The notes: a model not told the origin generated them from the sequence alone. Counted from the first letter of the stretch, positions 19,055-35,510 are shown. The stretch is 64,000 bases of DNA from Methanomassiliicoccaceae archaeon (GCA_034928305.1 JAYFOZ010000001.1:173255-237254), one strand, 5' to 3'. Translations and numbers: made by a program.

Positions 19055-19071
19055 ATGGATGATATATCCAA
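19055..19071. promoter_or_regulatory. 17-nt palindromic operator copy (ATGGAT-GATAT-ATCCAA) abutting a TATA-like AAATTATATA
   Basis: Lies 42 nt upstream of the NifH-like start at 19113. Same motif as at 24233, 24293, 24341, 32493, 32575 and 45847. Confidence 0.55.
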
Positions 19072-19112
19072 TAAATTATATAGGCTTCTGTCAATCTGGA
19101 TGCCGGCCGGAA

Positions 19113-21260
19113 ATGTATCAGATAGCATTCTACGGGAAAGGAGGAATAGGAAAGTCGACCATGGCCGCAAACATATCGGTCGCCCTAGCGGGCAAGGGAG
19201 CCAGGGTGATGCAGATAGGGTGCGACCCCAAGCACGACTCGACAAGACTTCTTCTCGGGGGGCGGGTCCAGACGACGGTACTGGACTACGTGCGTGAAGT
19301 ACCGGCAGGAAAGAGAAAGATCGAAGATGTGATGATGAAAGGCACATCCGGGATACTGTGCATCGAGGCGGGAGGTCCCGAACCAGGCATAGGATGCGCG
19401 GGGCGCGGTATACTGACGGCGTTTGATACGCTGAAGAAACTGGGCGCAGACGACTACGACGTCGAAGTGAAGATTTACGACGTCCTCGGGGATGTGGTGT
19501 GCGGTGGTTTTGCAGTCCCGCTGAGGGGAGAGTATGCCGACGGAATAGTGCTGGTCACATCCGGCGAGTTCATGTCGTTATACGCCGCCAACAACATAAT
19601 GAAGGGGCTGACCAACTTTGACACAGGCAAACCCAGATTGATAGGAATCATACTCAATTCGCGCGGAGTGGAGGGGGAAGAGGAAACCGTCAGGCGGTTC
19701 GCCGAAGCCGCGGGGACCAAGATAATAGCGGTCATCCCCCGCCATAGGCTGTTCTATGAGGCCGAATCATCCGGCCATACGGTCCGCGAGATGTTCCCGA
19801 GTTCAAAGTTATCAGAAACGATGGATTCAGTGGCACAGTACGTCATCGACGTTCGCGATGGGAAGAACCAGGCGTCGTTTTCCCATCCGCTCAACGACGA
19901 CCAGATGTCGGACCTTGCGGCAGGACGCGAAATACGCAGAGGAACATGCGGAGAAGCACTGCGACCCAGATGTACGACGTGCAATCCCAGGACTTCTATC
20001 AAAGAATCGAAGATAATGAGCTCTTGCGCCGCATACGGGGCCGCAGCAGCATATCTCAAAATGAACGACGTGGCCGTAGTCCTCCACGGGCCGCTGAGCT
20101 GCGCGTATCTCATGGACACGGCGCGCGCCAAAGCAGTTCTCGAACTTTATGCGGGCGGAATATATTCTACGGATCCGAACCACAATCTTAGGTGCACGAT
20201 GATGGACGACAGCTCCTCCATATTCGGAGGGGTCGGGAACCTCGAAAGGACCCTGAGAGATACAATTGGGGAGGGATACAGGAAAATCGCAGTGGTAACA
20301 ACGTGTATGCCCGGCATCATCGGCGATGACAGTCTGACGGTGATAAAAAAGGTGATCGGGGATAACCCCGGGGTCAGCATCCATTATGTCCCGGCAGATG
20401 GGGACGTCAACGGCGAATTCACAGACGGATTCATGATGGCCGTCGAAAAAATAACGGAGACCATGGACACCTCGTTGGAGAAGGAGCGGGGCACGGTGAA
20501 CATCATAGGTACGTCATTTTTCGATCTTCATTCACTCAGGAACGCGAAAGAGGTGGAAAGGTTATTCTCCGCTTTCGGCCTAAAAGAGAACTGCAGGTTT
20601 CTGGACGAGACATCTTCGGAAGCTGTGGCAGGCTTTTGCAGAGGTCACATAGATCTGATGGTCAACGACTCCGCCACAACGAGGGAAATGGCCTCTATAA
20701 TAGAATCGAAGACCGAGAGGGTGGCGCTGTCCGTGCCGTTGCCAGTCGGTCTCCACGACTATGTGGAGTGGGTTCGCCAGATAGGAAAGATGATGGATCT
20801 GGAAGAGGAAGCGGAAAGAGAGATCGAACGGGCAGAATCGGATCACGAGGAGTTCATAGAGGCGCACAGTCGCCATTTCAGAGGCAGAAAGGTCATCGTA
20901 ATGAACAGGACGTCGCAGAATATCGATTGGCTGATCGACATGCTGATCTGGTTAGGAGCGGAAATTTGCAGGGTGGGATGTGTTCCCAGCGCTCGCAAGT
21001 CCGGGTCGAGATCCGCATCCCGCCACTCGGACATCATAATGTCGGATTACGACACGGACGACCTCAGACGTGACCTGGCTAACATGGACCCAGACCTTAT
21101 CATCGGTGAATTCACCGGGCCTATAGGGAGCAGGTGCCGTATATCCAGGATCGGAAAGATAGGCATAGGCATTCTCCCGACCAAAGAGTACGTCGAGTAC
21201 CTGGAAAATATAATGAGGCTTCCCCGGGAGGAAGGTTGGAAGGAGGGAAGGAAAGTATGA
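19113..21260 (+). CDS. nitrogenase-superfamily fusion: NifH/BchL/CfbC-like ATPase domain + NifD/BchN-like 'component 1' domain
   Basis: MYQIAFYGKGGIGKST, CDPKHDSTR, GGPEPGIGCAGRGI and DVVCGGFAVPLR, then in the same frame SSCAAYGAA, LHGPLSCAY and TTCMPGIIGDD. The ORF-track start 19032 adds 27 non-homologous residues and is rejected. Confidence 0.8.
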   Translation: MYQIAFYGKGGIGKSTMAANISVALAGKGARVMQIGCDPKHDSTRLLLGGRVQTTVLDYVREVPAGKRKIEDVMMKGTSGILCIEAGGPEPGIGCAGRGILTAFDTLKKLGADDYDVEVKIYDVLGDVVCGGFAVPLRGEYADGIVLVTSGEFMSLYAANNIMKGLTNFDTGKPRLIGIILNSRGVEGEEETVRRFAEAAGTKIIAVIPRHRLFYEAESSGHTVREMFPSSKLSETMDSVAQYVIDVRDGKNQASFSHPLNDDQMSDLAAGREIRRGTCGEALRPRCTTCNPRTSIKESKIMSSCAAYGAAAAYLKMNDVAVVLHGPLSCAYLMDTARAKAVLELYAGGIYSTDPNHNLRCTMMDDSSSIFGGVGNLERTLRDTIGEGYRKIAVVTTCMPGIIGDDSLTVIKKVIGDNPGVSIHYVPADGDVNGEFTDGFMMAVEKITETMDTSLEKERGTVNIIGTSFFDLHSLRNAKEVERLFSAFGLKENCRFLDETSSEAVAGFCRGHIDLMVNDSATTREMASIIESKTERVALSVPLPVGLHDYVEWVRQIGKMMDLEEEAEREIERAESDHEEFIEAHSRHFRGRKVIVMNRTSQNIDWLIDMLIWLGAEICRVGCVPSARKSGSRSASRHSDIIMSDYDTDDLRRDLANMDPDLIIGEFTGPIGSRCRISRIGKIGIGILPTKEYVEYLENIMRLPREEGWKEGRKV

Positions 21261-22528
21261 GGACCCTGCCCGACGGTTTCAACGGTGCCATCATGGCGGT
21301 AGAGAGCATAACCGACGCCATAGCTTTCCTGCACGGCCCAGGAGGATGCAGGGTAAGGCACATGGTCCATTCGACAGCCGTCTTTCCCCGCGAGGACCCT
21401 GGAGACAAGGATGGGTACGACATACCATATTTCTACAGCTACCCGAGGGTGCCAGCAACATATCTCGACGAATATGATTACATAAACGGTGCGGCGTATA
21501 AGTTATCGGAAGGACTGCATATAGTTTCATCCAAGAAGCCGGCCCTCGTAGTGATCATCGATTCACCGGGCGCGGGGCTCATCGGCGATAATCACGAAAA
21601 GGCCGTGTGGGAGCTCGGACTTGAATCCAAGGTCGTATGCATGGACGAATCCCTCATATCTATGCCGTTCACCATTTGCTACGGCCACACGCTCAGAGCA
21701 GTAGTGGAGAAGCTCGGACCGGAAAGAGGCCGCCGGGAGAAGAATACGGTCAATATAATCGGCCTGACCATCATGGATAAGGACTGGAGGGCCGCCGCGG
21801 ACGAGCTGCGGGGGCTGGTCGAGTCCATGGGCCTGAAAGTAAAGTCCGTTCCCGGTGCTGGAGCTTCCACCTCGGAGCTCCGCGACTCCGTTAATGCGGA
21901 ATACAGCATCGTGGTGTGCCCGGAGGCGTGTGCCGGCCTGTCCGAGCTTTACGAATCATATGGGGTGAAAGTGGTGCGCTCGGATGCGGGCGCCCCCGTA
22001 GGATTCGATGCCACCGAGAGATGGATAACGTCGATAGCGGAGGCTACGGGCAGGGACCCGACGTCGGCGCTGGGGTCCGTCCGCAGGGCGAAGGAGAGAG
22101 TATATGAGAAATTTGTCGGTACGAAGTATAATTCGCTGCGCATAAAAGGAATGTCATTTTCCGCAGCCGGCACGGCATCGGTCATAAGGTCGCTGACAGA
22201 GTGGCTCTATCATTATCTGGCCATGGCGCCGGTCGCGGTATCGGTAGATCCCGGGGCCGATAAAGACGAGGTCGAGGCGCTTAAGGTATTTTTGGATTCG
22301 GCAGGATACCCCGAATCTTTTGGCCGGGAACCGAGAGAAGGTTCGGGCGCAGTCTTCTGCGAAGGCATAACCGCCTACACGATGCTATTGAACGGCGGGT
22401 GCAGGATCGGAGTGCCCATCGGATATTCCTCGATGGGCCTTGACGACGTGATTTCTCGCCCGGTGTACGGGGTACAGGGCGCGATGTACATACTGGATGA
22501 GATCCTGCACGGCGTAAGGGGAAATTGA
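21257..22528 (+). CDS. NifK/BchB-like 'nitrogenase component 1' subunit
   Basis: ATGA overlap with the upstream stop. AVESITDAIAFLHGPGGC and VVIIDSPGAGLIGDN motifs. 423 aa. Confidence 0.7.
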   Translation: MRTLPDGFNGAIMAVESITDAIAFLHGPGGCRVRHMVHSTAVFPREDPGDKDGYDIPYFYSYPRVPATYLDEYDYINGAAYKLSEGLHIVSSKKPALVVIIDSPGAGLIGDNHEKAVWELGLESKVVCMDESLISMPFTICYGHTLRAVVEKLGPERGRREKNTVNIIGLTIMDKDWRAAADELRGLVESMGLKVKSVPGAGASTSELRDSVNAEYSIVVCPEACAGLSELYESYGVKVVRSDAGAPVGFDATERWITSIAEATGRDPTSALGSVRRAKERVYEKFVGTKYNSLRIKGMSFSAAGTASVIRSLTEWLYHYLAMAPVAVSVDPGADKDEVEALKVFLDSAGYPESFGREPREGSGAVFCEGITAYTMLLNGGCRIGVPIGYSSMGLDDVISRPVYGVQGAMYILDEILHGVRGN

Positions 22529-22594: not shown

Positions 22595-23350
22595 TCAGAT
22601 CTTTCTCGTCTTCAGCAGATAGTAGTCCAAAGCGAAGAATGCCAGACTGAACGCGGCCAACACCATCAGCGAAATCCATGGGAAATCCAAATAGCCGGGT
22701 AGCGCCGCGGCCCTTATGCACTCGCTGGCATGGGTCAGCGGAAGGCAATACAGCACTCCCTGGAAAATCGGGGACAGAGAAGAAACCGAAAAGAACGTTC
22801 CGCACAGAAATGTCATCGGAAGTATGATCAGGCTGTTGAAGGTCGCGAGGCTCTGATGAGATTTGGCCAGCAGCGCCGCGGACATGCCGAGGAAAGAGAA
22901 GGCCAGGCAGGACAAGATCACGCACAGCGCAAATAACGGCGAAAGTACGAGTTCCGGCGCCAGAAACAACCCGAGGGCGTAAATCAGGACACAGCTCATC
23001 AATCCCCTGAATATCCCAAGCACAGATTTTCCGAAAATAATGGCGGGAAGGCTCAAAGGGCACATCATCATTTCGTCAAAACTCTTGTAGTAGAGCCTCT
23101 GGACGTTCATTCTTGTGGACGTCGACGAGAATGACGACGAGAGGGAAGAGAGTGCAACGATACCCGGTATTACGAACGCAACGTACGATACTCCGATATC
23201 GGTCGTCCCCGTCCTGAGCCCGTATCCGAACGCGATAAGATACAGCAAGGGGCTCATGACGCTCATAACCAGAATGTTCAGGAAATTGTGCTTGATGAAC
23301 ATGAGGTCTCCCCAGGCAACGTAATACGTCTGCTTAAGGAAGCTGATCAT
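22595..23350 (-). CDS. ABC-2 type transporter permease
   Basis: 251 aa, 6 TM segments, 4-nt overlap with the upstream ATPase. Confidence 0.75.
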   Translation of the reverse strand: MISFLKQTYYVAWGDLMFIKHNFLNILVMSVMSPLLYLIAFGYGLRTGTTDIGVSYVAFVIPGIVALSSLSSSFSSTSTRMNVQRLYYKSFDEMMMCPLSLPAIIFGKSVLGIFRGLMSCVLIYALGLFLAPELVLSPLFALCVILSCLAFSFLGMSAALLAKSHQSLATFNSLIILPMTFLCGTFFSVSSLSPIFQGVLYCLPLTHASECIRAAALPGYLDFPWISLMVLAAFSLAFFALDYYLLKTRKI

Positions 23351-24207
23351 TTCTGTGCCCCCACGCTCTTTCCGGTGAGTTCTACGAATACGTCCTCAAG
23401 GTTGATGTTCCTTATCAGTACATTCTCTTCGCTATCGAGGGATGAGACGAAAGCCTTGGCCTCGTCCCTGCTCCGGAAATACTTATACTGGGTCCTTTTT
23501 TCGGCCATGTACTCGACCGCCGTCGAACCCATGGCATCGCAGAGCTTTTTGGGCTCATCCAATGCTATTACTTTGCCCTGGTCTATGATTCCGACCCTGT
23601 CGCACAGAGCCTCCGCCTCTTCTATGTAGTGAGTGGTCAGGAAGATCGTCGTGCCCTTTCGGTTGAGGGATCTGACTACATCCCATAGGAGGCGCCTTGC
23701 GTTGATGTCGAGGCCGGACGTGGGCTCGTCCAGGAACAGGACCTTCGGTTCATGCAAGACGGCGCAGACTATAGCCACTCTTTTCTTCCAACCTCCGGAA
23801 AGCGAATCAACGGGCATTCCGAGATATTCTTTTAGACCGAAGTAGTCCGAGAGCTCCTTGATTTTTTCGTTTCTCTCTTTCTTCGGCATCATATGGTACA
23901 TTGCGTGGGAGACCATGTTCTCCATAACGGTAAGGTCCTTGTCAAGGGAGATCTGCTGCTGTATGACCCCCATCCGATTCTTTGCCTCTGTCGGGTCCCT
24001 CTTGATATCGAAACCATCGACTGTGATGGTACCAGAATCATATCCGGTCAGTGTGGCGATGCACCTTACCGTCGTCGTCTTTCCGGCGCCGTTGGGCCCC
24101 AGGAATCCGAATAGCTCTCCGTGGCGGATCCTCAGATTCAAATGATCTACAGCCGTTTTCTCCCCGAATTTTTTGACAAGATCGTCAATGATGATGATAT
24201 CATTCAT
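23347..24207 (-). CDS. ABC transporter ATP-binding protein (ABC-2/DrrA-like)
   Basis: Walker A GPNGAGKTT, signature LSGGWKKR, Walker B LFLDEPTSGLD. Confidence 0.9.
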   Translation of the reverse strand: MNDIIIIDDLVKKFGEKTAVDHLNLRIRHGELFGFLGPNGAGKTTTVRCIATLTGYDSGTITVDGFDIKRDPTEAKNRMGVIQQQISLDKDLTVMENMVSHAMYHMMPKKERNEKIKELSDYFGLKEYLGMPVDSLSGGWKKRVAIVCAVLHEPKVLFLDEPTSGLDINARRLLWDVVRSLNRKGTTIFLTTHYIEEAEALCDRVGIIDQGKVIALDEPKKLCDAMGSTAVEYMAEKRTQYKYFRSRDEAKAFVSSLDSEENVLIRNINLEDVFVELTGKSVGAQK

Positions 24208-24232: not shown

Positions 24233-24249
24233 TTGGATTATATATCCAT
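24233..24249. promoter_or_regulatory. operator copy TTGGAT-TATAT-ATCCAT
   Basis: In the divergent intergenic region between the ABC-2 ATPase (24207) and the binding protein (24366). Confidence 0.5.
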
Positions 24250-24292: not shown

Positions 24293-24309
24293 TTGGATGT
24301 ATAATCCAT
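24293..24309. promoter_or_regulatory. operator copy TTGGAT-GTATA-ATCCAT
   Basis: Same intergenic region. The central GTATA is identical to the copy at 32493. Confidence 0.5.
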
Positions 24310-24340: not shown

Positions 24341-24357
24341 TTGGATGATACATCCAA
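24341..24357. promoter_or_regulatory. operator copy TTGGAT-GATAC-ATCCAA (perfect half-sites)
   Basis: Lies 9 nt upstream of ATG 24366 and downstream of the TATA-like ATTATTAAATA (24311-21). Confidence 0.55.
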
Positions 24358-24365
24358 GTGATCGA

Positions 24366-25694
24366 ATGGATATGAAAATCAAGATAATCACAATAGTCGC
24401 CGCGACGGCCGTCGTGGTCGGGGCGATTGGAGCGTATGCACTTCTCAACGACGCGGACGACGACAGCGTCTATGTCGATGCATCACTGGCGATAATGGGG
24501 AATGCCAATGAAGATTCTAAGATCGACCAGGACGACCTTGACATTATTGAAGAAATAATCAGTGGCGAGACGGACCCCGCCGACCACCCATTGGCCGACG
24601 CGAACAACGACGGAGACGTCGACCAGGAAGACGCGGACCTTCTTCGCGACATGATCGACCATAAATCCGGCATAACGATAAACGTGGTCTGTTCCAATGC
24701 CGACGGGACCCCGTATGTACAGGATATAACATATCCGCTCAGAAGCACGGTTGTCGTTGGGACGAACCTTCTCTCTACATGCATCCAGGTAGGCGCGGCA
24801 GACTATATCGTCGGTTACACAAAGACAAATTACGGTGTCGCCCACGCACCCGTGATAGATAACGCGACGTGCATCGGAGGGTCAATCTTCGATCTGAACA
24901 CTGACACCTCAATAACAAACTTCCAGAATCTAGACGCACAAAAGGGGATTGATGCAGTGATTACGATGCCCTCAGTTTCATATCTCAAGACGTCTGCGGC
25001 GTACATCTCCGGCGCGGGGATACCCATCCTCAGGATTGATTCCTCGGACGGAATGGATTCTGTCGGCGGAGCGCTCACAATCGGATACATCTACGGAAGC
25101 GAGACCGAGAAAACCTCTTACGAATTCGCCGAGCTCAGCTATGCGGTGCTGGAAGAAATCACAGAAAGAGTGAGTGGATTGGAAGAATCGGAGAAGAAGA
25201 CCTTCATGGCAATCACAATGGGATACTATATCAGCCAGACCGACTCCGCGTATACAGGGGTTTGCGAGTACGCAGGCGGAAGCACGGTGACGACGCTGGA
25301 GGGCACTGGTTCGGTCAAGATAAACGACGGCGACGAATATTATCTCAACTGGAGCCCCGACTACATAATCAGCTTCAGGACGCTGGATTATTCGATTGAC
25401 TACACCGATATCTCAAGCAACAGCACGAAGACCCCGCAGGAAACATGGGACCAGTATTCCGGTTATTTCGACATGATGGGAGAGTCGTATGAAAACCTGG
25501 TGTACATCAACACCAGCATGCCTGTGACTTGCAGGATGGCATACATCGCCGAGATATTCTACCCAGACCTCTTTGAAGAGGGGTACGGGGACAGCGTGCA
25601 CCAGCAGTTTGTGGACAATTATATGGGGTATCTCGGTGACTTCGATGTCACCAAGGACATGACCACGATGATAACCTATGCGGATGTGTCATAA
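24366..25694 (+). CDS. membrane-anchored substrate-binding protein of a type-II ABC importer (Fe-siderophore/B12/heme class) with an N-terminal dockerin-like module
   Basis: TM anchor KIKIITIVAATAVVVGAIGAYALL. Two Ca-binding-type repeats: NANEDSKIDQDDLDIIEEII and DANNDGDVDQEDADLLRDMI. The remainder resembles Peripla_BP_2. Start chosen at MDMKIK. Confidence 0.65.
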   Translation: MDMKIKIITIVAATAVVVGAIGAYALLNDADDDSVYVDASLAIMGNANEDSKIDQDDLDIIEEIISGETDPADHPLADANNDGDVDQEDADLLRDMIDHKSGITINVVCSNADGTPYVQDITYPLRSTVVVGTNLLSTCIQVGAADYIVGYTKTNYGVAHAPVIDNATCIGGSIFDLNTDTSITNFQNLDAQKGIDAVITMPSVSYLKTSAAYISGAGIPILRIDSSDGMDSVGGALTIGYIYGSETEKTSYEFAELSYAVLEEITERVSGLEESEKKTFMAITMGYYISQTDSAYTGVCEYAGGSTVTTLEGTGSVKINDGDEYYLNWSPDYIISFRTLDYSIDYTDISSNSTKTPQETWDQYSGYFDMMGESYENLVYINTSMPVTCRMAYIAEIFYPDLFEEGYGDSVHQQFVDNYMGYLGDFDVTKDMTTMITYADVS

Positions 25695-25731
25695 ATGGGA
25701 GTATTCCCCCTCTTTTTTTGAGAGTGATCAC

Positions 25732-26529
25732 ATGGAGATGAAGGCCGTCGATCTGGGTTTCAGGTATTATGATAATGTGATATTGAGCGATGTCAACGTA
25801 GACCTCGAAGGCAACAAAATGGTGTCGATAATAGGTCCCAACGGAGTCGGAAAGACCACGCTCATTCACTGCTTCAGTAAGATACTGAAGCCCACAGACG
25901 GACGGGTGTATGTAAACGGAAAAGATATCGAAGATTACAAACTGAAGGAACTGGCTAAAATAATCGCATACGTCCCGTGCACTTCGCTGGACACATTCCC
26001 CCTGACCGTAACGGACACGGTTCTTTTGGGAAGAAATCCCCACAGTAAATGGGGGTCCCTGAACAGGGACCTGGAGAAGGTGCAGGAGACATTGCGGCTG
26101 CTGGGGATCGAGGATCTTGCCATGAGACCTTTCAACGAGCTTTCGGCAGGGCAACGTCAAAAAGTGGTGCTCGCCAGAGGGCTCGTGCAAGAGTCCCAGA
26201 TATTGCTTCTGGACGAACCCACGGCGAACCTGGACATCAAACACCAAATGGGCGTTACCAGATTGCTGCGTGACTACTCGCACAAGCAGGGCATAATGGT
26301 GATAATGATCAGCCATGACCTCAACATCGCTGCAAAGTATTCTGACGAAGTCATCATGTTGTACGGGGGGAACATATTCGCCAAGGGGTCGCCGAAGGAC
26401 ACAATCAATCCGGAGAACATAGAGGCTGTGTACGGTGTCAGGTCGAAAACCGTCATCAATAACGGTCGGCCGCATGTGATCCTCGAAGATGACGACGACC
26501 CGAAAACAAACATCTGCGCGGGTGCTTGA
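25732..26529 (+). CDS. ABC importer ATPase (FepC/BtuD-like)
   Basis: GPNGVGKTT, LSAGQRQKVVLARGL, LLLDEPTANLD, and the H-loop ISHDL. Confidence 0.9.
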   Translation: MEMKAVDLGFRYYDNVILSDVNVDLEGNKMVSIIGPNGVGKTTLIHCFSKILKPTDGRVYVNGKDIEDYKLKELAKIIAYVPCTSLDTFPLTVTDTVLLGRNPHSKWGSLNRDLEKVQETLRLLGIEDLAMRPFNELSAGQRQKVVLARGLVQESQILLLDEPTANLDIKHQMGVTRLLRDYSHKQGIMVIMISHDLNIAAKYSDEVIMLYGGNIFAKGSPKDTINPENIEAVYGVRSKTVINNGRPHVILEDDDDPKTNICAGA

Positions 26530-27607: not shown

Positions 27608-28674
27608 TGGTTCATGAGCAGATCTATGGATTCGTGGAGAAGTATTGCCACGAGAATCACAAGAAAATCGTTTTTACAATAACCTGTCTGATACTAGCCA
27701 TATTTGTCTTTTTCCTGACAATCTCCATCGGAAAATACGAGCTGTCTTTCGGCGAGTCGTATAGGATATTTGTCGACAATCTTTTCGGAAACGGTCAGGC
27801 TACAACAGAGAACATGATCATCTGGGAATACCGTGTCCCCCGAGCCCTCATGGGCATATTCGTCGGGGCATCGCTGGCAGTGGGCGGCGCGGTCATGCAG
27901 AACCTGATGATGAACCCGCTTGCGGAACCGTATACCATGGGCATTTCGTCCGGTGCCTTCCTCGGTGCCGTGCTGTCGATAACATGCGGTATATCCATCA
28001 TCCCGTTCCTCGGCGGAGACGACGCCACGGTATTGAACGCATTCATCCTTTCGCTCGCGCCGGTATTTCTGATCGTAGCAATATCCAAATTCAGAAAGAC
28101 CACGCCTACGACCATGATACTGTGCGGGGTGGCCATAATGTACGCATTCAGTTCGGTATCGACGATGCTGATGGTCTTGGCGGACCCTGAGCATCTCTCG
28201 GACGCATATTCGTGGCGCGTCGGAGTCCTCGGTAAGGCCTCGTGGGACAGCCTGATGCTGGTAACTCCCTCGATGACGATCCTCATTGCGATATTGTTAC
28301 TCTTCGCGGGAAAGATCAATACGATGTCCATAGGAGACAAGGGAGCAATCTCGCTGGGCACAGACCCATACCGGACCAGGCTCGTCTGCCTGGTCCTGGT
28401 CGCGTTGCTTACGGCATTCGCTGTCAGCTTCACCGGCACGATCGGATTCGTCGGCCTCGTGGCCCCACATATAGTCAGGACGTTCATTGGATCGAACAAC
28501 ACGTATCTTCTGCCGGCATGTGCGGGATTCGGAGGCATATTCCTCCTTGTGATGGACTCAATAGCCAAAGTGATAAGCGAGACCGGGCTACCCGTAGGTG
28601 TCATATCCGCGATGGTCGGGGGCCCCCTCTTCATATACATACTGGTACAGAGGAAGCGCAGGATATGGTACTGA
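27607..28674 (+). CDS. FecCD/BtuC-family permease, subunit 2
   Basis: TGATG overlap start (MVHEQIYG..). Motifs RALMGIFVGASLAVGGAVMQ and NPLAEPYTMGISSGA. The ORF-track start 27313 is rejected. Confidence 0.85.
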   Translation: MVHEQIYGFVEKYCHENHKKIVFTITCLILAIFVFFLTISIGKYELSFGESYRIFVDNLFGNGQATTENMIIWEYRVPRALMGIFVGASLAVGGAVMQNLMMNPLAEPYTMGISSGAFLGAVLSITCGISIIPFLGGDDATVLNAFILSLAPVFLIVAISKFRKTTPTTMILCGVAIMYAFSSVSTMLMVLADPEHLSDAYSWRVGVLGKASWDSLMLVTPSMTILIAILLLFAGKINTMSIGDKGAISLGTDPYRTRLVCLVLVALLTAFAVSFTGTIGFVGLVAPHIVRTFIGSNNTYLLPACAGFGGIFLLVMDSIAKVISETGLPVGVISAMVGGPLFIYILVQRKRRIWY

Positions 28675-28685
28675 TCATCCAACGT

Positions 28686-28720
28686 CCGGGGAAAAGCGGG
28701 GCAATGGCCCCGTACCCCGG
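28686..28720. terminator. nested GC hairpin between the convergent permease and cobN
   Basis: CCGGGG...GGGGC-AATG-GCCCC...CCCCGG. Confidence 0.3.
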
Positions 28721-28740
28721 ACGGCCACATATATACAGGC

Positions 28741-31700
28741 TCAGCGGTCGTTGACCTCTTCGATACGCTCTTCCAGGCCCAGGAATATTTCCTTCATTTT
28801 CTCGAGTGTTTTCGGGTCGGCGTCCCACATACCCCTGTCGCAGGCCTCCATGAGGCGGTTCATCATGTCCATCATGGCGTGAGGATTTTCGTCCTTCATC
28901 CATTCGCGCGTATCGTCGTCGAACAGATACTTCTCGGCAAGCTTCTCGTACATCCAGTCATCTACTGTTTCGGAAGTGGCGTCCCATCCGAACATGTATT
29001 CAGTAAGGTTGGCTACCTCTGCAACCCCCCTGTAACCGTGCCGTTTCAACCCCTCTATGAATTTCGGATTTAGCACTTTGCTCCTGAAAACGAACTGAAG
29101 CTCTTCTCTGGTGCTTCTCAACCTAACCTTGTCGGGATTCGAACCGTCGCCGATCAAAGATATCGCGTCCTTTTTGCCGTATGCTCTCACAAAAGAGTTG
29201 AGCCCTCCGAGATACCCGTACACATCATCCATGTCCAGCACGTCGATCTCCCTGTCCGGCATATTCTTCACGGTCACGCCGACCTTGCCGAACCTCTTGA
29301 CGAACTGGTCCCTCATGCTCTCTCCGGTCATGCCGCGCCCGTAAGCATAGCTCCCCCAGGTGATGTAGATGTCAGCAAGGTCCTGCACGGTCTTCCAATC
29401 GCCAGTTTCCACGGCGTGGTTAACGCCAGGGCCATACCCTCCCGGCGGGCAGCCGAAAATGCGCACAAGGCCCTCCTTTTTGACCTGTTCCGCCGGCAGT
29501 CCCTTCTCTATTCCCTCTACGATATCTCTGCGCAGGTTCGCCGCTAGGTAGTTTTCTTCTTCGGACTCGTCCAGGCCGGCCGCCATTTTTACTGCGTCGT
29601 CTATCAGGTCGATAAGGTTAGGGAAAGTATCCCTGAACAATCCCGTGATGCGGACGGTCACGTCTATGCGTGGTCTCCCCAGCTCAGACAGGGGAACGGG
29701 CTCCAGCCCGACGACCTGCCCGCCAACATTGGACCACACGGGCCTTATGCCCATCAGCCATAGTATATAAGCGACGTCGTCGCCGTTGGTCTTCATGGTA
29801 TCGGTCGCCCATATGATGAAACCGACCTCGCGGGGATAGTGCCCCGTTTCGTCAATATAGCGTTCGACCATCTGGTCGGCCATCTTTTTACCGATCTCCC
29901 AAGAGGAAGGCGGAGGGACGATGTCCGGATCGATGCCGTAATAATTCCTGCCCATCGGAAGTATATGGGCGTTCCCCCTGGTTGGGGCTCCAGAAGGGCC
30001 CGGGAGGACGTAACCTCCGTTACACCCATGGATAAGATTGTCCATTTCGTCAGTCATCCTCATGATGTTCCTTGCCAGGGAATCGCAGATATAGGCTATC
30101 GAAGACCCGAAGCCAGGTGACATGCCTCCGGCCGCCTCTTCCGCAAGTCTCATGCAGCTGTCCTTTTCATAATCAGCGCATCTCATTGCGGTCAGCAGGT
30201 CAAGCAGGTCTTTTTCCAGAGAATCGATAACAACGGAGTTCAGCTCGCCCTCGCGGACCTCGGATGGATTGTCGAGAAGGACATCCATATTGTATCCCCG
30301 TACCTCTGCAAAAGAATCTCTGAGCGAGGGGACGTCTCCGTTTTTCAATCTCATGATGGAATATATCATCTCGTCGAAACGGTCTCCTTCCGGGGCCCTC
30401 CCCAGTATATGGAGCCCGTCCCGGATCAACGCATCTCTGATATCCGTAAGATATGCGTGCAGATCGTCGAGGCGGCCTTCGAATTCCTCCGCAGAAATGT
30501 TTTCGGAAATATCCAGGTCCCCAAACATTTTGGCTTCGCGGACGCCGTTCAAAACACGCTCTACAAGCGCCATTCTCTTTCCGTCGCTGGAATTCCTCGC
30601 TTTGAAGTATTCCTGCAGAGCGTTATCAATCGCGGACAACTCGTCGTACGAGCCCGCCCGAGCCATCGCAGGGCACATGTGCCCTATAAGCACGGCCTCA
30701 GAACGCCTCTTGCACTGAATTCCTTCTCCAGGATCGTCGATGATGTATGGATAGATGTGCGGGATCCCGTCGAGCACGATGTCCGGAAAGCATTTCGAAG
30801 ACAATCCGACACTCTTGCCAGGGAGCCACTCCAGAGTTCCGTGCGTCCCCATATGAAAGACGATGTCCGTTCCAAAGTCGAACTTGAGCCATCTGTAAAA
30901 CATCAGATATTGATGGGGCATCGGCACCACGGGATCATGATAAACAGACTCCATCTGGTTGGCCCAAGATCTCAGGGGCTGATAACCGATGAATATGTTG
31001 CCGTTCAGCAGGCCGGGGATAACGAATTTGCCGTCTTCGACGCATATAGTTCCGGGAGGCTTTCCCCAATTTTCTTCCATCAGCCGTCTGTTGAACTCGG
31101 ACAGTTCCGAGTAGTACCGCCTATATTCCCTCAGGTCGGCCATGTCTGCAGCCTTTTCCCTCACTCTTTCGGGGGAAGACCATTCAAGGTCGTTCGTGAT
31201 ATTGTCCAAAATCTCATCGATAAGGGCCCTTCCGTTCAGGGGCACGTGATTCACGGTATAGCCCTGCCTGTCGAATCTTATGAGCATGTCGTTCACACTT
31301 TCGATGGTGTCGAGGCCCGCAGCGTTCCCTATGCGCCCCGATTCCGGACGGGATTGATACATCAGAATTGCAACCTTACGCTCGGAGGCTGGTTTCATGG
31401 ACAGTTTGGCCCAGCATTTTACTGCGTTGGAAAGATGCTCTATCCTGTCCTCTACCGGAGAATACCTCTTCGTTCCGCCCAGGCATCCCTCGTTGCTACC
31501 GATCGGCACGGTGATGATCTGACCGTCGACCTCCGGCCAGACCACGCTCATCTTCAGTTCGCCGTTGCTCAGTCCGGAAGCGCTCTCTTCGTAATCTGAA
31601 AAGTGGCCGCCCACCGTCATGGCCTGTATGACCGGGACGTCCGTCAGGTAATGATAGAAGTTCTGTTCATCGGGAGTGTAGATGCCCGTGCAGTCTCTGG

Positions 31701-32481
31701 AGTTATTGAGCTGTGAGAACGGGGTTGCCATTATAATTGCGTTCACCCTGCACTTTTTTCCGTCCATAAGATATTTTTCAACCACCGAAAGAGTGCCCCC
31801 GCTCCCCTCGGAGCTGCTGACCCTCGTGCTGAAGAAAACCGGGATGACGTTGACCTCTATTGATTCAAGCTTTCTGATGAGCATATCGATATGCTCCTGA
31901 TTGTTGTATATCCACAGATTAGATGTGTACAGTATCCCGACGGTAGGACGGCCGGGGACCAGATGTTCCAGATAATCCTTCAGGTCCACGTCTCTGGAAT
32001 AATCCGGATGATATATGCCGTCCTCTCTGTTTTTAATCGGTTCCGGGACGGCCCCATCGCCGGTAAGCTTGTTGTTCAGCCATTGCAGGATGCCCTTGTC
32101 GTTCTCTCTGCCCCTGTTTCCGATATATTCCCCCAACAGTTTGAAATCTTCATCGGAGCCCTTGAACAAATCGCGATACATGAGGCGCACTTCTACGTTC
32201 CCGGCATAGGACATGACATAGCCGGGGCATTCTCTGAGCACATTTTCAAATTGGGCGAATCTCTTCATCCGTGACGGTTCGGCCATGGATCTAATTATTG
32301 TCAGATCTGCAACTTTGGACCTGCGTACAAGTTCCTGGTACAACAGCGGATCATCGTCCACATCTTCCCCGTTAACGCAGAACAGTTCTATGTCCCATTT
32401 TCTCTCCAGGGATATTTCCCTTGCGGGCTCTTCCATATTGTGGGCGTCCGAACTCTGAATTGATATATAAACGACTTTCAT
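28741..32481 (-). CDS. cobN: CobN/ChlH/BchH-family large chelatase subunit
   Basis: 1246 aa. Length and architecture fit the class I chelatase large subunit (FHMGTHGTLEWLPGK, GNAHILPMGRNYY and similar). Divergent from the chlI/chlD-like genes. Confidence 0.85.
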   Translation of the reverse strand: MKVVYISIQSSDAHNMEEPAREISLERKWDIELFCVNGEDVDDDPLLYQELVRRSKVADLTIIRSMAEPSRMKRFAQFENVLRECPGYVMSYAGNVEVRLMYRDLFKGSDEDFKLLGEYIGNRGRENDKGILQWLNNKLTGDGAVPEPIKNREDGIYHPDYSRDVDLKDYLEHLVPGRPTVGILYTSNLWIYNNQEHIDMLIRKLESIEVNVIPVFFSTRVSSSEGSGGTLSVVEKYLMDGKKCRVNAIIMATPFSQLNNSRDCTGIYTPDEQNFYHYLTDVPVIQAMTVGGHFSDYEESASGLSNGELKMSVVWPEVDGQIITVPIGSNEGCLGGTKRYSPVEDRIEHLSNAVKCWAKLSMKPASERKVAILMYQSRPESGRIGNAAGLDTIESVNDMLIRFDRQGYTVNHVPLNGRALIDEILDNITNDLEWSSPERVREKAADMADLREYRRYYSELSEFNRRLMEENWGKPPGTICVEDGKFVIPGLLNGNIFIGYQPLRSWANQMESVYHDPVVPMPHQYLMFYRWLKFDFGTDIVFHMGTHGTLEWLPGKSVGLSSKCFPDIVLDGIPHIYPYIIDDPGEGIQCKRRSEAVLIGHMCPAMARAGSYDELSAIDNALQEYFKARNSSDGKRMALVERVLNGVREAKMFGDLDISENISAEEFEGRLDDLHAYLTDIRDALIRDGLHILGRAPEGDRFDEMIYSIMRLKNGDVPSLRDSFAEVRGYNMDVLLDNPSEVREGELNSVVIDSLEKDLLDLLTAMRCADYEKDSCMRLAEEAAGGMSPGFGSSIAYICDSLARNIMRMTDEMDNLIHGCNGGYVLPGPSGAPTRGNAHILPMGRNYYGIDPDIVPPPSSWEIGKKMADQMVERYIDETGHYPREVGFIIWATDTMKTNGDDVAYILWLMGIRPVWSNVGGQVVGLEPVPLSELGRPRIDVTVRITGLFRDTFPNLIDLIDDAVKMAAGLDESEEENYLAANLRRDIVEGIEKGLPAEQVKKEGLVRIFGCPPGGYGPGVNHAVETGDWKTVQDLADIYITWGSYAYGRGMTGESMRDQFVKRFGKVGVTVKNMPDREIDVLDMDDVYGYLGGLNSFVRAYGKKDAISLIGDGSNPDKVRLRSTREELQFVFRSKVLNPKFIEGLKRHGYRGVAEVANLTEYMFGWDATSETVDDWMYEKLAEKYLFDDDTREWMKDENPHAMMDMMNRLMEACDRGMWDADPKTLEKMKEIFLGLEERIEEVNDR

Positions 32482-32492
32482 ATCTTCAAATA

Positions 32493-32509
32493 TTGGATGT
32501 ATAAGCCAA
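32493..32509. promoter_or_regulatory. operator copy TTGGAT-GTATA-AGCCAA (cobN side of the divergent promoter)
   Basis: Lies 12 nt upstream of the cobN start 32481, between it and the TATA-like TTTATTTATAT (minus strand). Confidence 0.5.
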
Positions 32510-32574
32510 TATAAATAAATTTAATGTTCCAGTTAGAATCATTCATTATCGGATAAAGGTTTATTATAGGTAAA

Positions 32575-32591
32575 TTGGATATATGAGCCAA
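32575..32591. promoter_or_regulatory. operator copy TTGGAT-ATATG-AGCCAA (chlI side)
   Basis: Lies 17 nt upstream of ATG 32608, just after the TATA-like TTTATTATA. Confidence 0.5.
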
Positions 32592-32607
32592 CCAGTTGGG
32601 AATTATC

Positions 32608-33633
32608 ATGGACAGATTACTTTTCCCGTTCGTCTCGATCGTAGGTCAAAAAGAAATGAAAAAAGCACTGCTGCTCAACGTTGTGGACCCGAGCATCGGA
32701 GGCGTACTCATAAAGGGTGAAAAGGGAACGGCGAAATCGACGGCCGTCAGATCGCTTTCGCAGATCCTTCCCTGGCGTATGTCGGCGGAGGGATGCGCGT
32801 TCAACTGCGACCCTTCGTTGCCCGGCAGGCTGTGCCCCTACTGCAAAGAGAAGATCCTTTCAGGAAAGGACCTGAGGTCCGTAAATGTCAGAATGAGGGT
32901 TGTGGAACTCCCTCTGAGCGCCACGGAGGATCGAGTCTCGGGCACTCTGGATATCGAACACATCCTCAAGACGGGGGAAAGGAAGTTCGATCCCGGAGTA
33001 CTTGCACAGGCCAACGGGAATGTGCTCTATATAGACGAGGTGAACCTTCTGGACGACCACATCGTAGATCTATTGCTCGATTCAGCGGCAATGGGAGTCA
33101 ATTATGTGGAAAGAGAAGGGGTCTCCTTCTCTCATCCTTCTAGATTTATTCTGGTTGGTACGATGAATCCGGAGGAGGGGGACCTCAGACCGCAGCTTTT
33201 GGACAGGTTCGGGTTGTCCGTCGAAGTAAAAGGGGACAGAGACACCGACGAACGCATGGAGGTCGTCCGAAGAAGGCTTGAGTTCGACACAAACCCGGAA
33301 AAATATACTGAAAAATACGGGGCAGAGTCGGAACAGCTGACGTCCAGGCTGTCAAAGGCCCGGGAAATCCTTCCGGACGTTTCGGTGGACGACGATGTTC
33401 TGAGAGCGATAGTGAACATGACGATAAACCTGGGCATCGATGGCCACAGGGCAGATATCACAATGGTTAAAGCGAGCAAGGCCAACGCTGCCATGGACGG
33501 GAGGGTCCGCGTAACCAAAGAGGACGTCAGGGAGGCGGCCCCTCTGGCACTTTCTCATCGTATGCGGCGGCGCCCGTTCGAGGAAGAAGCATTCGACAAA
33601 GAGGAACTCGACAGATGTATGCAGACTATATGA
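32608..33633 (+). CDS. chlI: ChlI/BchI-like AAA+ chelatase subunit
   Basis: FPFVSIVGQKEMKKALLLNVVDPSIGGVLIKGEKGTAKST, Walker B LYIDEVNLLDDHIVD, GTMNPEEGDLRPQLLDRFG. Confidence 0.9.
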   Translation: MDRLLFPFVSIVGQKEMKKALLLNVVDPSIGGVLIKGEKGTAKSTAVRSLSQILPWRMSAEGCAFNCDPSLPGRLCPYCKEKILSGKDLRSVNVRMRVVELPLSATEDRVSGTLDIEHILKTGERKFDPGVLAQANGNVLYIDEVNLLDDHIVDLLLDSAAMGVNYVEREGVSFSHPSRFILVGTMNPEEGDLRPQLLDRFGLSVEVKGDRDTDERMEVVRRRLEFDTNPEKYTEKYGAESEQLTSRLSKAREILPDVSVDDDVLRAIVNMTINLGIDGHRADITMVKASKANAAMDGRVRVTKEDVREAAPLALSHRMRRRPFEEEAFDKEELDRCMQTI

Positions 33634-35510
33634 GCGGGCTTCCTTTCACTGCCATATATGGCATGGACGACCCGAAAAAAGCAGTGCTTTGCTCCATGGT
33701 CAACCCCCGCATACGTACGGTTCTGATAATGGGATGTTCGGGATCTGCAAAGACTGCTCTTTCCAGGGCGACGGGCGCCCTGATGGGCAGGGAGGTCGTG
33801 AACGTGCCACTCAATGTTACAGAGGAGCAGCTGTTTGGCGGAATGGACATCGAGGCCACCCTCAGAGAGGGAAGGCCCGTGGTACAGAATGGGATCATGC
33901 ACCGGGCAGACGGGAAGATACTGTACGTAGATGACATAAATCTCCTAGATCAGAAGATCGCCGCGGCACTGACCGACTGCATACTGAACGGAAAGGTGGT
34001 TCTGGAAAGAGAAGGAATATCCGCCGAGTACGAATGCAAAATCACCCTGATCGCAACGATGAACCCGCTGGGTCCCGAAATGAGCTCGCATCTGACCGAC
34101 CGTTTCGATCTGTGCGCATACTCTGTCTTTCCCGAGGATGAGAGCGGAAGAAAAGAGGTGCTCCGCAGGAATATAGAATATCAAAAAGGAGCCGCATCGT
34201 TCTCCGAAATGTACGGGGATGAGGAATCTTTGCTCAGGTCTAAGGTCGAGAGGGCCCAATCTATTCTTCCCATCGTAAAGATGTCCGACGACCTTTTGGG
34301 CGTAATCGTCGAGCTCGCCGCAAAGGTATCCGCAGAAGGTTTCCGCGGCGACCTGGCAATAATCAACGCCTCCATGGCTCTGGCAGCCCTCAACGGACGG
34401 GACGAGGTAACCAGAAAGGATGTGGAAGAGGTGGCGGCACTGTGCCTGGTTCACCGCCGCAATACTTCTCCCGAACCTCCGGAGCGGCGGGAGCAGGAGC
34501 AGGAGCAGGAGGGACAAGATGAAGAAAGGGAGCCTCGCAGAGACGAAGGGCAGCGGCAGGAAAGCAATGGAGAGGGACAAGATCACGGGGCCGAAGAACC
34601 GCCCGATCGGGGTGAGAGCTCCGACTCCGAGGAACCGGGCCCCGAACGGACGGCAGAGGATATCCTTTTCGAAGTCGGAGAGCAGTTCAGAGTTATCGAC
34701 TATATTCACGGGACCGGTCGCAAGGTCCGAAAGACATCTAGCAGAAAGGGCCGCAGAGAGGCCGCAGAAAGTTCGGACACGACAGGAAGATACATATGTT
34801 CCAGGTGTCCGGAAGGGAAAGCCAAGGACATTGCGTTAGATGCAACCATTCGTGCTGCGGCACCGTATCAGAGGTCCAGAGATCATGGAGATCTTGCGAT
34901 ATCGATAAATGGCCAGGATATCAGAGAGAAGGTTCGTGAAAGGCAATCCGGATGCACGATATTATTCCTTGTCGACGCCAGCGGTTCTCTGGGCGTCAGA
35001 AAGAGAATGTCAGCGGTAAAGGGCGCAGTCCTCTCGATGCTTCAGGACAGCTATGTAAAAAGGGACAAGGTGGGGCTGATGGCGTTCAGACGTGATTCTG
35101 CCGAGTTGATACTGCCGCCTACCAGGTCCGCGGAGTACGGGTATAGGAAACTGGCGGAGATGCCCACCGGGGGGAAGACCCCGCTCGCCGAGGCCCTGGT
35201 TTCGGCCGGAAAGGTCATGACATCGTATTCCAGGTCGCACCCAGGGGAGATGTGTTACATCGTGGTCATCACAGACGGCCGCGCCAACGTTCCGATCGAT
35301 CGGGGCGCCGACGCCAACGAAGAGGTGATCAAACTGGCATCGAAGATGTCCATACCCCAGGTGGACTGGATCGTAATCGATGCCGGCTCCGGATATGTCC
35401 GTTTTGATAACGCCGAAAAGCTGGCAATGGAACTCGAGGGCACATACTTCAGGCTGGACGATCTGAACTCGGACAGGCTGGCAGAGAATATCAGAGCGGT
35501 CATCAGATAA
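33615..35510 (+). CDS. chlD: ChlD/BchD-like chelatase subunit (degenerate AAA+ domain, acidic/Pro linker, vWA domain)
   Basis: Degenerate P-loop GCSGSAKT. Linker PEPPERREQEQEQEGQDEEREP...SDSEEPGPE. vWA MIDAS motif LFLVDASGSLG. Confidence 0.85.
   Translation: MYADYMSGLPFTAIYGMDDPKKAVLCSMVNPRIRTVLIMGCSGSAKTALSRATGALMGREVVNVPLNVTEEQLFGGMDIEATLREGRPVVQNGIMHRADGKILYVDDINLLDQKIAAALTDCILNGKVVLEREGISAEYECKITLIATMNPLGPEMSSHLTDRFDLCAYSVFPEDESGRKEVLRRNIEYQKGAASFSEMYGDEESLLRSKVERAQSILPIVKMSDDLLGVIVELAAKVSAEGFRGDLAIINASMALAALNGRDEVTRKDVEEVAALCLVHRRNTSPEPPERREQEQEQEGQDEEREPRRDEGQRQESNGEGQDHGAEEPPDRGESSDSEEPGPERTAEDILFEVGEQFRVIDYIHGTGRKVRKTSSRKGRREAAESSDTTGRYICSRCPEGKAKDIALDATIRAAAPYQRSRDHGDLAISINGQDIREKVRERQSGCTILFLVDASGSLGVRKRMSAVKGAVLSMLQDSYVKRDKVGLMAFRRDSAELILPPTRSAEYGYRKLAEMPTGGKTPLAEALVSAGKVMTSYSRSHPGEMCYIVVITDGRANVPIDRGADANEEVIKLASKMSIPQVDWIVIDAGSGYVRFDNAEKLAMELEGTYFRLDDLNSDRLAENIRAVIR

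Follow-up and report, generated by a model that had tools for sequence, protein, structure and literature searches.

Only a few functions are known for nitrogenase-like enzymes (NFLs), namely nitrogen fixation, chlorophyll formation, F430 formation and two sulfur-salvage reactions, and each of these has revealed unusual chemistry. Here we describe an eleven-gene locus at positions 19055 to 35510 of a 64,000-nucleotide stretch of DNA from a Methanomassiliicoccaceae archaeon (GCA_034928305.1, JAYFOZ010000001.1:173255-237254; hereafter 'the window'), in which an NFL composed of a NifH::NifD-like fusion and a K-like partner (H::D-K) is encoded beside a CobN-type chelatase, an ABC importer and an ABC exporter. 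We propose, with a probability of roughly 55%, that this locus is a co-regulated system by which a Methanomassiliicoccales methanogen acquires and processes corrinoids, the B12 family of cofactors.

Among the described systems that resemble this locus, CfbCD is likewise found in methanogens and joins an ATP-dependent NifH-like reductase to a NifD-like core whose [4Fe-4S] cluster is of the simple kind, an arrangement that the H::D-K sequences would also predict. Both systems may share a chelation-then-reduction logic, which in the CfbCD pathway is applied to a sirohydrochlorin-derived metallo-tetrapyrrole. However, CfbD is a homodimer, whereas this locus encodes an H-D fusion with its own K partner, and in place of CfbA, the chelatase of the F430 pathway, we find a class I chelatase (CobN-ChlID) wired to an importer and an exporter. 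A second likeness is to DPOR and COR together with BchHID, where a class I chelatase is followed by nitrogenase-like ring reduction of a metallated tetrapyrrole by H, D-like and K-like proteins. DPOR carries a 3+1 ligated inter-subunit [4Fe-4S] cluster, and the same arrangement is predicted for H::D-K, except that DPOR uses Asp as the fourth ligand where H::D-K would use Cys. The H::D-K system differs further in that its host is non-phototrophic, its H and D are fused, its control appears to be linked to B12 rather than to pigment, and a profile of its D domain matches NifE and NifD with 150-190 bits, compared with 53 bits for BchN.

For the importer and chelatase genes, a parallel exists in operon-2 of Dehalobacter restrictus, which encodes a FecCD-type transporter, CobN, Mg-chelatase subunits and CbiZ, is riboswitch-controlled, and is induced 346-fold by corrinoid starvation (PMC4285132). 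This operon and its Acetobacterium woodii counterpart contain the same module as window positions 24366-35510 (FepBCD/BtuCD-like importers, CobN and Mg-chelatase-like subunits). As published, operon-2 differs by the presence of CbiZ paralogues and the lack of a nitrogenase-like enzyme and an ABC-2 exporter, and it is a bacterial operon under a riboswitch, while the archaeal locus carries a putative protein operator. The HmuS/BtuS systems of Bacteroidota also place a reductant-requiring CobN-superfamily protein with an HxGxHG motif beside metallo-tetrapyrrole uptake genes in gut anaerobes, but HmuS is membrane-anchored and faces the periplasm, whereas the window CobN is predicted to be soluble and is accompanied by ChlI and ChlD motors. 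Finally, the Group VI NFLs of Elusimicrobia are uncharacterised, lack FeMo-co ligands, have fewer Cys residues, and have a proposed role in tetrapyrrole cofactor synthesis that draws on genome context only. They are set apart by their description, in which the context is one of radical-SAM genes and no fusion, chelatase or importer is reported (10.1101/765248).

The fused protein itself has also been seen before. A 2012 survey by Dos Santos et al. noted an H::E-like fusion and then filtered such sequences out of its phylogeny (PMC3464626), and in Borrel et al. 2014 'fused nifH/nifE' serves only as a map landmark, in a lineage that retains separate canonical CfbCD (PMC4153887). A 2026 Chem Rev review of NFLs covers Nfa, DPOR, COR, CfbCD, MAR, ISR and the uncharacterised Group VI, but the words 'fused' and 'fusion' are absent from it and Methanomassiliicoccales are not mentioned. 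An initial annotation of this locus, made from the sequence alone, was aware of no described pathway with this composition. With regard to the parts this was too broad, since the fusion was noted in 2012 (PMC3464626) and the importer-chelatase-CbiZ module was known (PMC4285132), but neither the combination of that module with a nitrogenase-like enzyme nor a function for it is found in the literature searched.

The eleven-gene locus is real, with each gene recovered at its originally annotated position or a few codons from it, and the best named homologues identify the host as a member of the Methanomassiliicoccales. The NifH::NifD-like fusion (19113-21260, + strand) is one open reading frame with Pfam matches to Fer4_NifH (2.8e-86) and Oxidored_nitro (1e-54) and with NCBIfam matches as well. 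We take the ATG at 19113 to be its real start because homologues are also ~715 amino acids long. The gene for the K-like (NifK/N-like) partner subunit (21257-22528, +; Oxidored_nitro, 1e-38) overlaps the stop codon of the fusion by 4 nucleotides (ATGA). Convergent to this pair are the genes for an ABC-2 type exporter permease with six predicted transmembrane segments (22595-23350, -; Pfam ABC2_membrane, 5.8e-21, and a transmembrane scan) and for a DrrA/NodI-like exporter ATPase (23347-24207, -; TIGR01188, 281 bits). The importer genes encode a membrane-anchored substrate-binding protein (SBP; 24366-25694, +), recognised by its AlphaFold fold and the domains of its homologues, an ABC ATPase of the heme/FecE/corrinoid type (25732-26529, +; NCBIfam matches all under their cutoffs), and two FecCD-family permeases (26489-27607, +, Pfam FecCD 1.8e-80; 27607-28674, +, 3.9e-83). 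The chelatase genes encode a CobN-type large subunit (28741-32481, -; TIGR02257, 916 bits with a cutoff of 822), a ChlI/BchI-like AAA+ motor subunit (32608-33633, +; TIGR02442, 501 bits, and TIGR02030, 431 bits) and a ChlD/BchD-like subunit with AAA+ and vWA domains (33615-35510, +; TIGR02442, 546 bits, TIGR02031, 429 bits, and Pfam VWA_2). Gaps between adjacent genes range from -41 to +158 nucleotides.

The three promoter-bearing intergenic regions of this locus have in common a 17-bp palindrome with the consensus TTGGAT-N5-A(T/G)CCAA, which resembles an operator. One copy, TGGATGATATATCCA (19056-19070, no strand assigned), precedes the start codon of H::D by 43 bp. Three more (24234-24248, 24294-24308 and 24342-24356) occupy the divergent promoter region between exporter and importer, two (32494-32508 and 32576-32590) occupy the divergent promoter region between CobN and ChlI, and the seventh (45848-45862) is located upstream of a second importer operon. 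All seven sites in the window therefore fall in promoter regions of H::D, ABC-2/SBP, CobN/ChlI or the second importer. Counted as strand-matches, the window yields 12 where 0.39 are expected, and none of 100 shuffles reached 12. A motif scan of the 64 kb found no copy at IscSU, CysK or MetY. A search of 91 related archaeal loci (1.0 Mb) yields 42 exact sites, of which 33 are found within 250 bp upstream of genes of this system (17 at H::D, seven at the ABC-2 ATPase, five at CobN, two at ChlI, and one each at SBP and FecE), with a modal distance of ~47 bp between the site and the H::D start, and most of the other sites precede further class III binding proteins. This putative shared operator is direct sequence evidence that the locus forms one regulon. 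A gene for a winged-helix (MarR/HTH_24) protein with a DUF7839 domain lies ~230 bp from an operator copy in one related locus (L159:2546-3355, -) and may encode an autoregulated repressor; no homologue of it was found in the window or in the other related loci compared.

To assess linkage, neighbours were counted in 38 metagenome loci that are anchored on K and span 11 kb or more. Many of these contigs end early, and the counts are therefore lower bounds. A genome scan with the whole fusion was swamped by generic NifH motifs, and the K-based metagenome scan kept mainly archaeal loci and few bacterial ones. Beside H::D-K, an ABC-2 exporter is present in 22 of the 38 loci, a FecCD permease in 18 and a chelatase subunit in 21, in shuffled gene orders. 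For example, the locus L003, whose fusion is 54% identical, reads FecCD-ATPase-ChlI-ChlD-CobN-isochorismatase-ABC2-H::D-K on one strand, and in a Methanomassiliicoccaceae metagenome-assembled genome (MAG; L006) H::D-K is embedded inside the importer operon. Three distant metagenome loci (L142, L156 and L160) have the order ChlI-ChlD-FecCD-FecE-H::D-K-CobN, and a Bathyarchaeia MAG (L014) has SBP-FecCD-ATPase-H::D-K-ABC2. The clustering of these genes exceeds chance, because the synteny recurs in rearranged form and because the operator is confined to the promoters of the locus plus one importer. The comparison with other archaea proposed in the initial annotation thus finds the block conserved, and its suggestion that the parts work as one functional unit is borne out by this synteny, by a variant form of the block in bacteria, and by the common operator. 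Redox genes also recur as neighbours, with an FMN-reductase or flavodoxin in 12 loci and a 2x[4Fe-4S] ferredoxin in 10.

Two observations concern the arrangement of the fused gene in relatives. The genome of the methanogenic archaeon ISO4-G1 (CP013703.1; L001, L002) carries two paralogous H::D fusions, one with K and an ABC-2 exporter, and the other with no K gene, directly followed by Peripla_BP_2-FecCD-ATPase and with ChlI and ChlD 2 kb upstream. In 18 loci of a rumen clade (L086-L125), a divergent gene 650-900 bp upstream of H::D encodes a protein of ~245 amino acids with no Pfam match (e.g. L093:2983-3705, -), of which no homologue is detectable in the window.

The reductase belongs to the NFL superfamily by virtue of a NifH-type P-loop and two cluster Cys residues, and of D- and K-like Oxidored_nitro (PF00148) folds. 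The 715-residue fusion consists of a NifH-like domain (approximately residues 1-278), a linker (~279-304) and a NifD/E-like domain (~305-715), and AlphaFold predicts both domains with confidence and, between them, a disordered tether of ~26 residues. In 26 homologues, the H-domain motifs GKGGIGKS, CAGRGI (equivalent to Cys97) and VVCGGF (equivalent to Cys132) are invariant or nearly so. The D domain has three Cys residues that align with C62, C88 and C154 of NifD, and Asp or Ser at the position of the cofactor ligand NifD Cys275 / NifE Cys250, while K has a single family-invariant Cys (LHGPGGC). These four Cys residues at the D/K interface would fit one simple [4Fe-4S] cluster, as in DPOR and CfbD, rather than a P-cluster plus an M- or L-cluster. 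The tether also carries a near-invariant CxxC (C287, C290), and the D domain a family-specific invariant Cys (C494, in VNCRFLD); neither has a counterpart in characterised NFLs.

The NFL families compared here (CfbCD, nitrogenase, DPOR/COR and MAR) do not accommodate these proteins. NCBIfam scores are under cutoff for CfbC (318 versus 402 bits), CfbD (27.7 versus 268 bits), NifH, BchL/X and every D/K equivalog, and in the Bch comparisons (BchL/X, BchN/Y, BchB/Z) H reaches at most 190 bits and D and K at most 65 bits, with cutoffs of 331-529. A true nitrogenase (Nif/Vnf/Anf) was rejected on the basis of Asp/Ser at the Cys275 position, the one invariant K Cys, where a P-cluster has 3+3 Cys, and NifD, NifK and NifE scores far under cutoff; DPOR and COR (Group V) were rejected by the sub-cutoff scores for all Bch equivalogs, and MAR by the absence of the L-cluster Cys from D and of a NifB-like gene (compare MarB) from the locus and from the recurrent archaeal neighbours. 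Ordinary CfbCD was likewise set aside, given the low CfbC and CfbD scores, the presence of a K partner, the distinct H clades, and a separate pair of CfbC-like and CbiX genes in a relative (L003). In a crude neighbour-joining tree of H domains, which lacks support values, 38 of 39 fused sequences fall in one clade, apart from conventional NifH, a CfbC-like clade, a Negativicutes clade of CobN-linked H-D-K and a gut-Firmicutes H-FecCD-FecE clade. On sequence grounds, then, the reductase represents a separate, fused and unclassified NFL clade whose ligand pattern is that predicted for a simple cluster. The K family has ~105 representatives at E<=1e-30 and 200 at <=1e-10 among 1.84 billion clusters at 50% identity, and the fused protein occurs in more than 120 archaeal clusters (~715 amino acids) and in a similarly large bacterial set whose carriers include Sporobacter, Thermincola, Aminipila, Oscillospiraceae, Anaerovoracaceae and Coriobacteriales.

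Some bacterial loci hold other NFL arrangements. A Peptococcaceae MAG has a second, unfused set in the order D-K-H (L013:7492-10828), with a tRNA pseudouridine synthase gene between it and the fused pair. The gut-Firmicutes clade (L036, L041, L042, L046, L053, L065 and L079) has the order H-FecCD-ATPase-...-D/K-like, in the crude tree its H domains branch as the sister group of the CfbC-like clade, and no riboswitch is found directly upstream of its NFL genes.

The chelatase has the three components of a class I ATP-dependent enzyme, namely a large subunit, an AAA+ I subunit and an AAA+/vWA D subunit, and is by family assignment of the cobalt type. The best match of ChlI and ChlD is TIGR02442 ('putative cobaltochelatase'), with scores under the cutoff of that fused model. 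CobN is predicted to be cytoplasmic, with no transmembrane segment or signal sequence, and carries the motif HMGTHG at residue 543. Against solved structures it scores 674 bits with Mycobacterium tuberculosis CobN, 463 with ChlH and 355 with HmuS, and the lower HmuS score, along with the lack of a membrane anchor or signal, led us to reject identity with the HmuS/BtuS dechelatases. An ordinary cobalt chelatase of an aerobic-type B12 pathway is also not indicated, as Methanomassiliicoccales use the anaerobic route (PMC10804542), and the use that Archaea make of HmuS/CobN/ChlH homologues has been called unclear (Nath et al. 2025, PMC12583661). The outcomes that the initial annotation had named as fatal to its proposal, a lack of synteny elsewhere or parts that resolve into ordinary CfbCD and an aerobic-type chelatase, were thus not obtained, because synteny is conserved, the reductase is not CfbCD and the chelatase is not of the aerobic type. 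In Negativicutes (Dialister, Phascolarctobacterium), H-D-K-CobN operons carry a gene for a radical-SAM protein of ~345 amino acids right after CobN (L022:17563-18612 and L037:19107-20144).

The importer, with its FecCD permeases, ATPase and class III SBP, is a type II ABC importer of the BtuCD/FecCD/HmuUV class. The SBP has no Pfam match, and a sequence search against the PDB gave none. Its AlphaFold model (pLDDT 89.3) nevertheless adopts a class III/TroA-like fold (TroA/BtuF/FhuD-type), and the top Foldseek matches are class III SBPs (E ~1e-14, TM-score up to ~0.7 normalised by target length). The predicted order of parts is a transmembrane anchor, a dockerin-like repeat and the class III fold, and homologues carry PF00404 or PF01497. 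An attempt to assign a ligand from this fold failed, as the nearest structures are uncharacterised SBPs from Veillonella and Eubacterium, MolA and YiuA. The repeat resembles the Ca-binding repeats of type I dockerins and hints at cohesin-dockerin-type docking on the methanogen cell surface. The importer ATPase matches models for heme (NF010068, 218 bits), FecE (203 bits) and corrinoid (186 bits) ATPases, all under cutoff. The second importer operon (45914-51817, +), recognised by Pfam matches and the operator site upstream, is probably a further member of the regulon. Directly after the seventh operator it encodes an unknown protein of 261 amino acids (45914-46699, +), followed by a Peripla_BP_2 binding protein (46751-48136, +; Pfam), an unusual 958-residue fusion of a PQQ-like beta-propeller to a FecCD permease (48133-51009, +), and an ABC ATPase (51002-51817, +; Pfam).

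Riboswitches are generally lacking in archaea, and none was found in the 64-kb window. The bacterial homologues, however, allow a link between this NFL and B12 to be examined. A cobalamin riboswitch (54.7 bits, same strand) lies ~170 nucleotides upstream of the fused H::D-K in the Peptococcaceae MAG (L013), directly 5' of these genes, and in another locus (L169) one of 109.9 bits on the same strand is directly 5' of a small open reading frame followed by H::D-K. In Phascolarctobacterium faecium (L037), a riboswitch of 102 bits is found on the same strand directly 5' of an unfused H-D-K-Peripla_BP_2-FecCD-CobN-radical SAM-...-CbiZ operon. In L170, a cobalamin riboswitch precedes an operon for a CbiK-type chelatase, Peripla_BP_2, FecCD and ATPase that is divergent from H::D-K, and therefore the triad of chelatase, importer and NFL recurs with a different class of chelatase. 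Conventional nif loci served as a control, and 131 kb of them contain no riboswitch, compared with nine in 357 kb of loci around the fused family and its chelatase- or importer-linked relatives. The immediate neighbours also include RACo_C_ter (directly before H::D-K in Sporobacter, L164), methylmalonyl-CoA mutase and MeaB (L169), and a free-standing PF04071 Cys-rich domain (L167), a domain that archaeal CbiH carries at its N-terminus as well. Together, the bacterial riboswitches and the CbiZ, CbiK, RACo and methylmalonyl-CoA mutase neighbours point to corrinoids rather than to nickel and F430, magnesium or heme. Uptake and remodelling of a metallo-tetrapyrrole, as proposed in the initial annotation, remains the best reading; that proposal is borne out in part and narrows to corrinoids.

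Two of these bacterial loci have further riboswitch features. A cobalamin aptamer of 79 bits (L170:10646-10871, -) is located antisense to H::D in the 835 bp that separate H::D from K; such a gap is unusual in that the two genes normally overlap. The other locus holds four cobalamin riboswitches in 18 kb (L169:1-18202), one of them upstream of, and on the same strand as, the methylmalonyl-CoA mutase/MeaB operon, an atypical case of a B12-dependent enzyme behind a B12 riboswitch.

The genes that flank the locus in the window are largely housekeeping genes: a trp operon, homoserine dehydrogenase, IscS/IscU, and, 2-5 kb downstream, genes for a cysteine-synthase-like protein and an O-acetylhomoserine sulfhydrylase. 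A flavodoxin is also encoded in the window. An open reading frame at 18264-19028 (+) was rejected as probably not a gene, as it matches no family and does not resemble the conserved gene of unknown function that precedes H::D in relatives. At 11463-11521 there is a weak partial tRNA match (31 bits) that is not called by ARAGORN, and beside it a Schlafen-group-3 helicase-like gene (11986-13890) that may be an integrated-element remnant or a defence gene.

According to the corrinoid model, the BtuFCD-like type II importer and its surface-anchored class III SBP would take up a cobalt tetrapyrrole, either a corrinoid or a relative of one, and cytoplasmic CobN, driven by the ChlI/ChlD AAA+ motors, would insert cobalt into a metal-free or precursor macrocycle. 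In the NFL, probably an (H::D)2K2 assembly, ATP hydrolysis in the fused NifH-like domain would drive low-potential electrons through the single inter-subunit [4Fe-4S] cluster to the cobalt tetrapyrrole. Plausible electron donors are the flavodoxin/FMN-reductase and 2x[4Fe-4S] ferredoxin neighbours and the flavodoxin of the window. The outcome could be reduction of the ring, for example from cobalt-factor II/III to a cobalt-precorrin before CbiH (compare the action of CfbCD on Ni-sirohydrochlorin diamide), or reduction of Co(II) to Co(I) ahead of adenosylation. We infer the substrate of the reductase, the order of the steps and the direction of chelation.

We know of no dedicated archaeal enzyme for the Co(II) to Co(I) step ahead of adenosylation, and CbiH60 of Bacillus megaterium is said to have its own Fe-S domain and to need a reductant. 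A JBC 2020 review of B12 synthesis changes 'factor' to 'precorrin' at the step before CbiH with no reductase named, and assigns the Co(II) to Co(I) reduction of the aerobic pathway to CobR. The host lineage also has unusually many BtuC clades and depends on corrinoid methyltransferases (PMC10804542). The narrower proposal that the fused H::D-K is a further class of NFL, an ATP-driven cobalt-tetrapyrrole reductase that acts within one B12-responsive regulon of gut and rumen methanogens, with CobN-ChlID as the cobaltochelatase of archaea and anaerobes that has long lacked an explanation, is more tentative, and we consider it less likely than not.

Several observations weigh against a corrinoid role. 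Of the bacterial fused loci, nine extend far enough upstream to be assessed; only two of these have a riboswitch directly 5' of the NFL genes, six (L011, L019 and L165-L168) have none nearby, and a permissive Rfam scan of four bacterial leaders revealed no further riboswitch. The archaeal loci have no riboswitch but a putative protein operator. The D and K sequences are nearer to NifE/NifD and 9d9u than to BchN/BchB, and the CfbD score is very low, such that the analogy with tetrapyrrole reductases is based on the ligand pattern and genomic context rather than on closest homology. The fold of the SBP does not separate B12 from heme, siderophores or metal chelates, and the importer ATPase scores slightly higher on the heme model than on the corrinoid model. 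The ABC-2 exporter has no role in the corrinoid model, and Fe-S and iron genes recur nearby (IscSU in the window, SufBD in 10 loci, ferritin and rubrerythrin in L165). In addition, cultured Methanomassiliicoccales have CbiJ, CbiT and CbiC (PMC7617358), and with the anaerobic pathway largely present there is no obvious gap for an NFL to fill. The same finding weakens the idea, taken from PMC10804542, that these genes are a non-orthologous replacement for missing CbiJ/CbiK.

Several of these points would be accommodated if the locus served to obtain iron from heme or other metalloporphyrins. Heme would be imported, CobN-ChlID would run as an ATP-driven dechelatase, NFL electrons would reduce the heme iron or the ring and so loosen the metal, and the ABC-2 exporter would expel the metal-free porphyrin, which makes this the sole model with a natural job for the exporter. 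HmuS offers a precedent as a CobN-family heme dechelatase that needs a reductant (PMC12583661), the best, albeit sub-cutoff, NCBIfam match of the importer ATPase is the heme ABC ATPase (218 bits), iron and Fe-S genes (IscS/IscU, SufBD, ferritin, rubrerythrin) are neighbours, and the host lineage dwells in gut and rumen. However, the window CobN is soluble and unanchored by prediction, its score with true CobN (674 bits) is far above that with HmuS (355 bits), and HmuS does not need ChlI/ChlD motors. Cobalamin riboswitches on NFL-only operons and the CbiZ, CbiK, RACo and methylmalonyl-CoA mutase neighbours are not expected under iron acquisition, and IscSU, CysK and MetY in the window lack the operator. 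We therefore consider heme dechelation unlikely, because CobN appears soluble and CobN-like and the riboswitches point to B12.

The similarity of the D domain to NifE raises the prospect of a metallocofactor scaffold, in which the H::E-like and N-like proteins act as NifH and NifEN, and the importer and chelatase feed metal. The D profile is indeed nearest to NifE/NifEN (189 and 152 bits) among solved structures, ahead of or alongside 9p1x_A, 9d9u_A and NifD (145-189 bits overall, versus 53 for BchN). For NFLs linked to ABC transporters, a coupling between metal transport and cofactor assembly was put forward by Dos Santos et al. (PMC3464626), and Fe-S assembly genes are nearby. This function is nevertheless improbable, as evident by Ser/Asp at the NifE-Cys250/NifD-Cys275 ligand position and by neighbourhood annotation, in which neither the locus nor the recurrent genes of archaeal neighbourhoods include NifB, another radical-SAM gene or a client enzyme. 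Moreover, the substrates of CobN-type chelatases are tetrapyrroles rather than clusters, and control by B12 riboswitches would be left unexplained.

B12 riboswitches commonly control B12-independent isozymes, and the NFL could by this logic perform non-tetrapyrrole chemistry, such as C-S cleavage of the MAR/ISR type in support of methionine or cysteine synthesis, that is switched on like metE when B12 is scarce, with the chelatase and importer as mere neighbours. The best PDB match of the K profile is 9d9u_C (130 bits), and ISR is an NFL that is predicted to have only a [4Fe-4S] cluster, yet cleaves C-S bonds (PMC13474568). Sulfur genes are also present, in the form of the cysteine-synthase-like and O-acetylhomoserine sulfhydrylase genes of the window and a CysK-like gene that abuts K in L019 and L124. 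Such a bypass is very doubtful, however, given that sulfur-gene neighbours occur in just three of ~100 loci, that the L-cluster Cys is absent, that the archaeal NFL can reside inside an importer operon (L006), that the operator is common to CobN, ChlID and SBPs but not to sulfur genes, and that the NFL is repeatedly accompanied, across domains, by a chelatase of the CobN or the CbiK class.

To our knowledge, the DK-type cores of all characterised NFLs bind small substrates at the subunit interface, which speaks against an equally doubtful proposal, namely that this NFL takes on the job of RamA and RACo by re-reducing Co(II) corrinoid methyltransferase proteins, rather than the free cofactor, to Co(I). 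Such a job demands ATP-coupled, low-potential reductase chemistry, the gene just before H::D-K in Sporobacter is a RACo_C_ter gene, and Methanomassiliicoccales live entirely by corrinoid-dependent methyl transfer (PMC10804542), but repression by a B12 riboswitch is opposite to what an activase of B12-loaded proteins needs, and linkage to importer, chelatases and CbiZ would go unexplained.

The fused clade is widespread in methanogens and in gut and other anaerobic bacteria, with ~100-200 clusters at 50% identity, and has stayed invisible because the phylogenies underlying the current group scheme explicitly left such sequences out. Its proposed link to B12 makes two questions testable: what role CobN/ChlID plays in archaea and anaerobes, and what provides low-potential reduction in anaerobic corrinoid synthesis or salvage. 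If the narrower proposal of a cobalt-tetrapyrrole reductase is true, an NFL would supply a low-potential reduction that lacks an assigned enzyme in the anaerobic B12 pathway or in salvage. The energy metabolism of Methanomassiliicoccales depends wholly on corrinoid methyltransferases, and a dedicated, co-regulated module for B12 acquisition would be of applied interest because control of ruminant methane through the B12 handling of these methanogens has been suggested.

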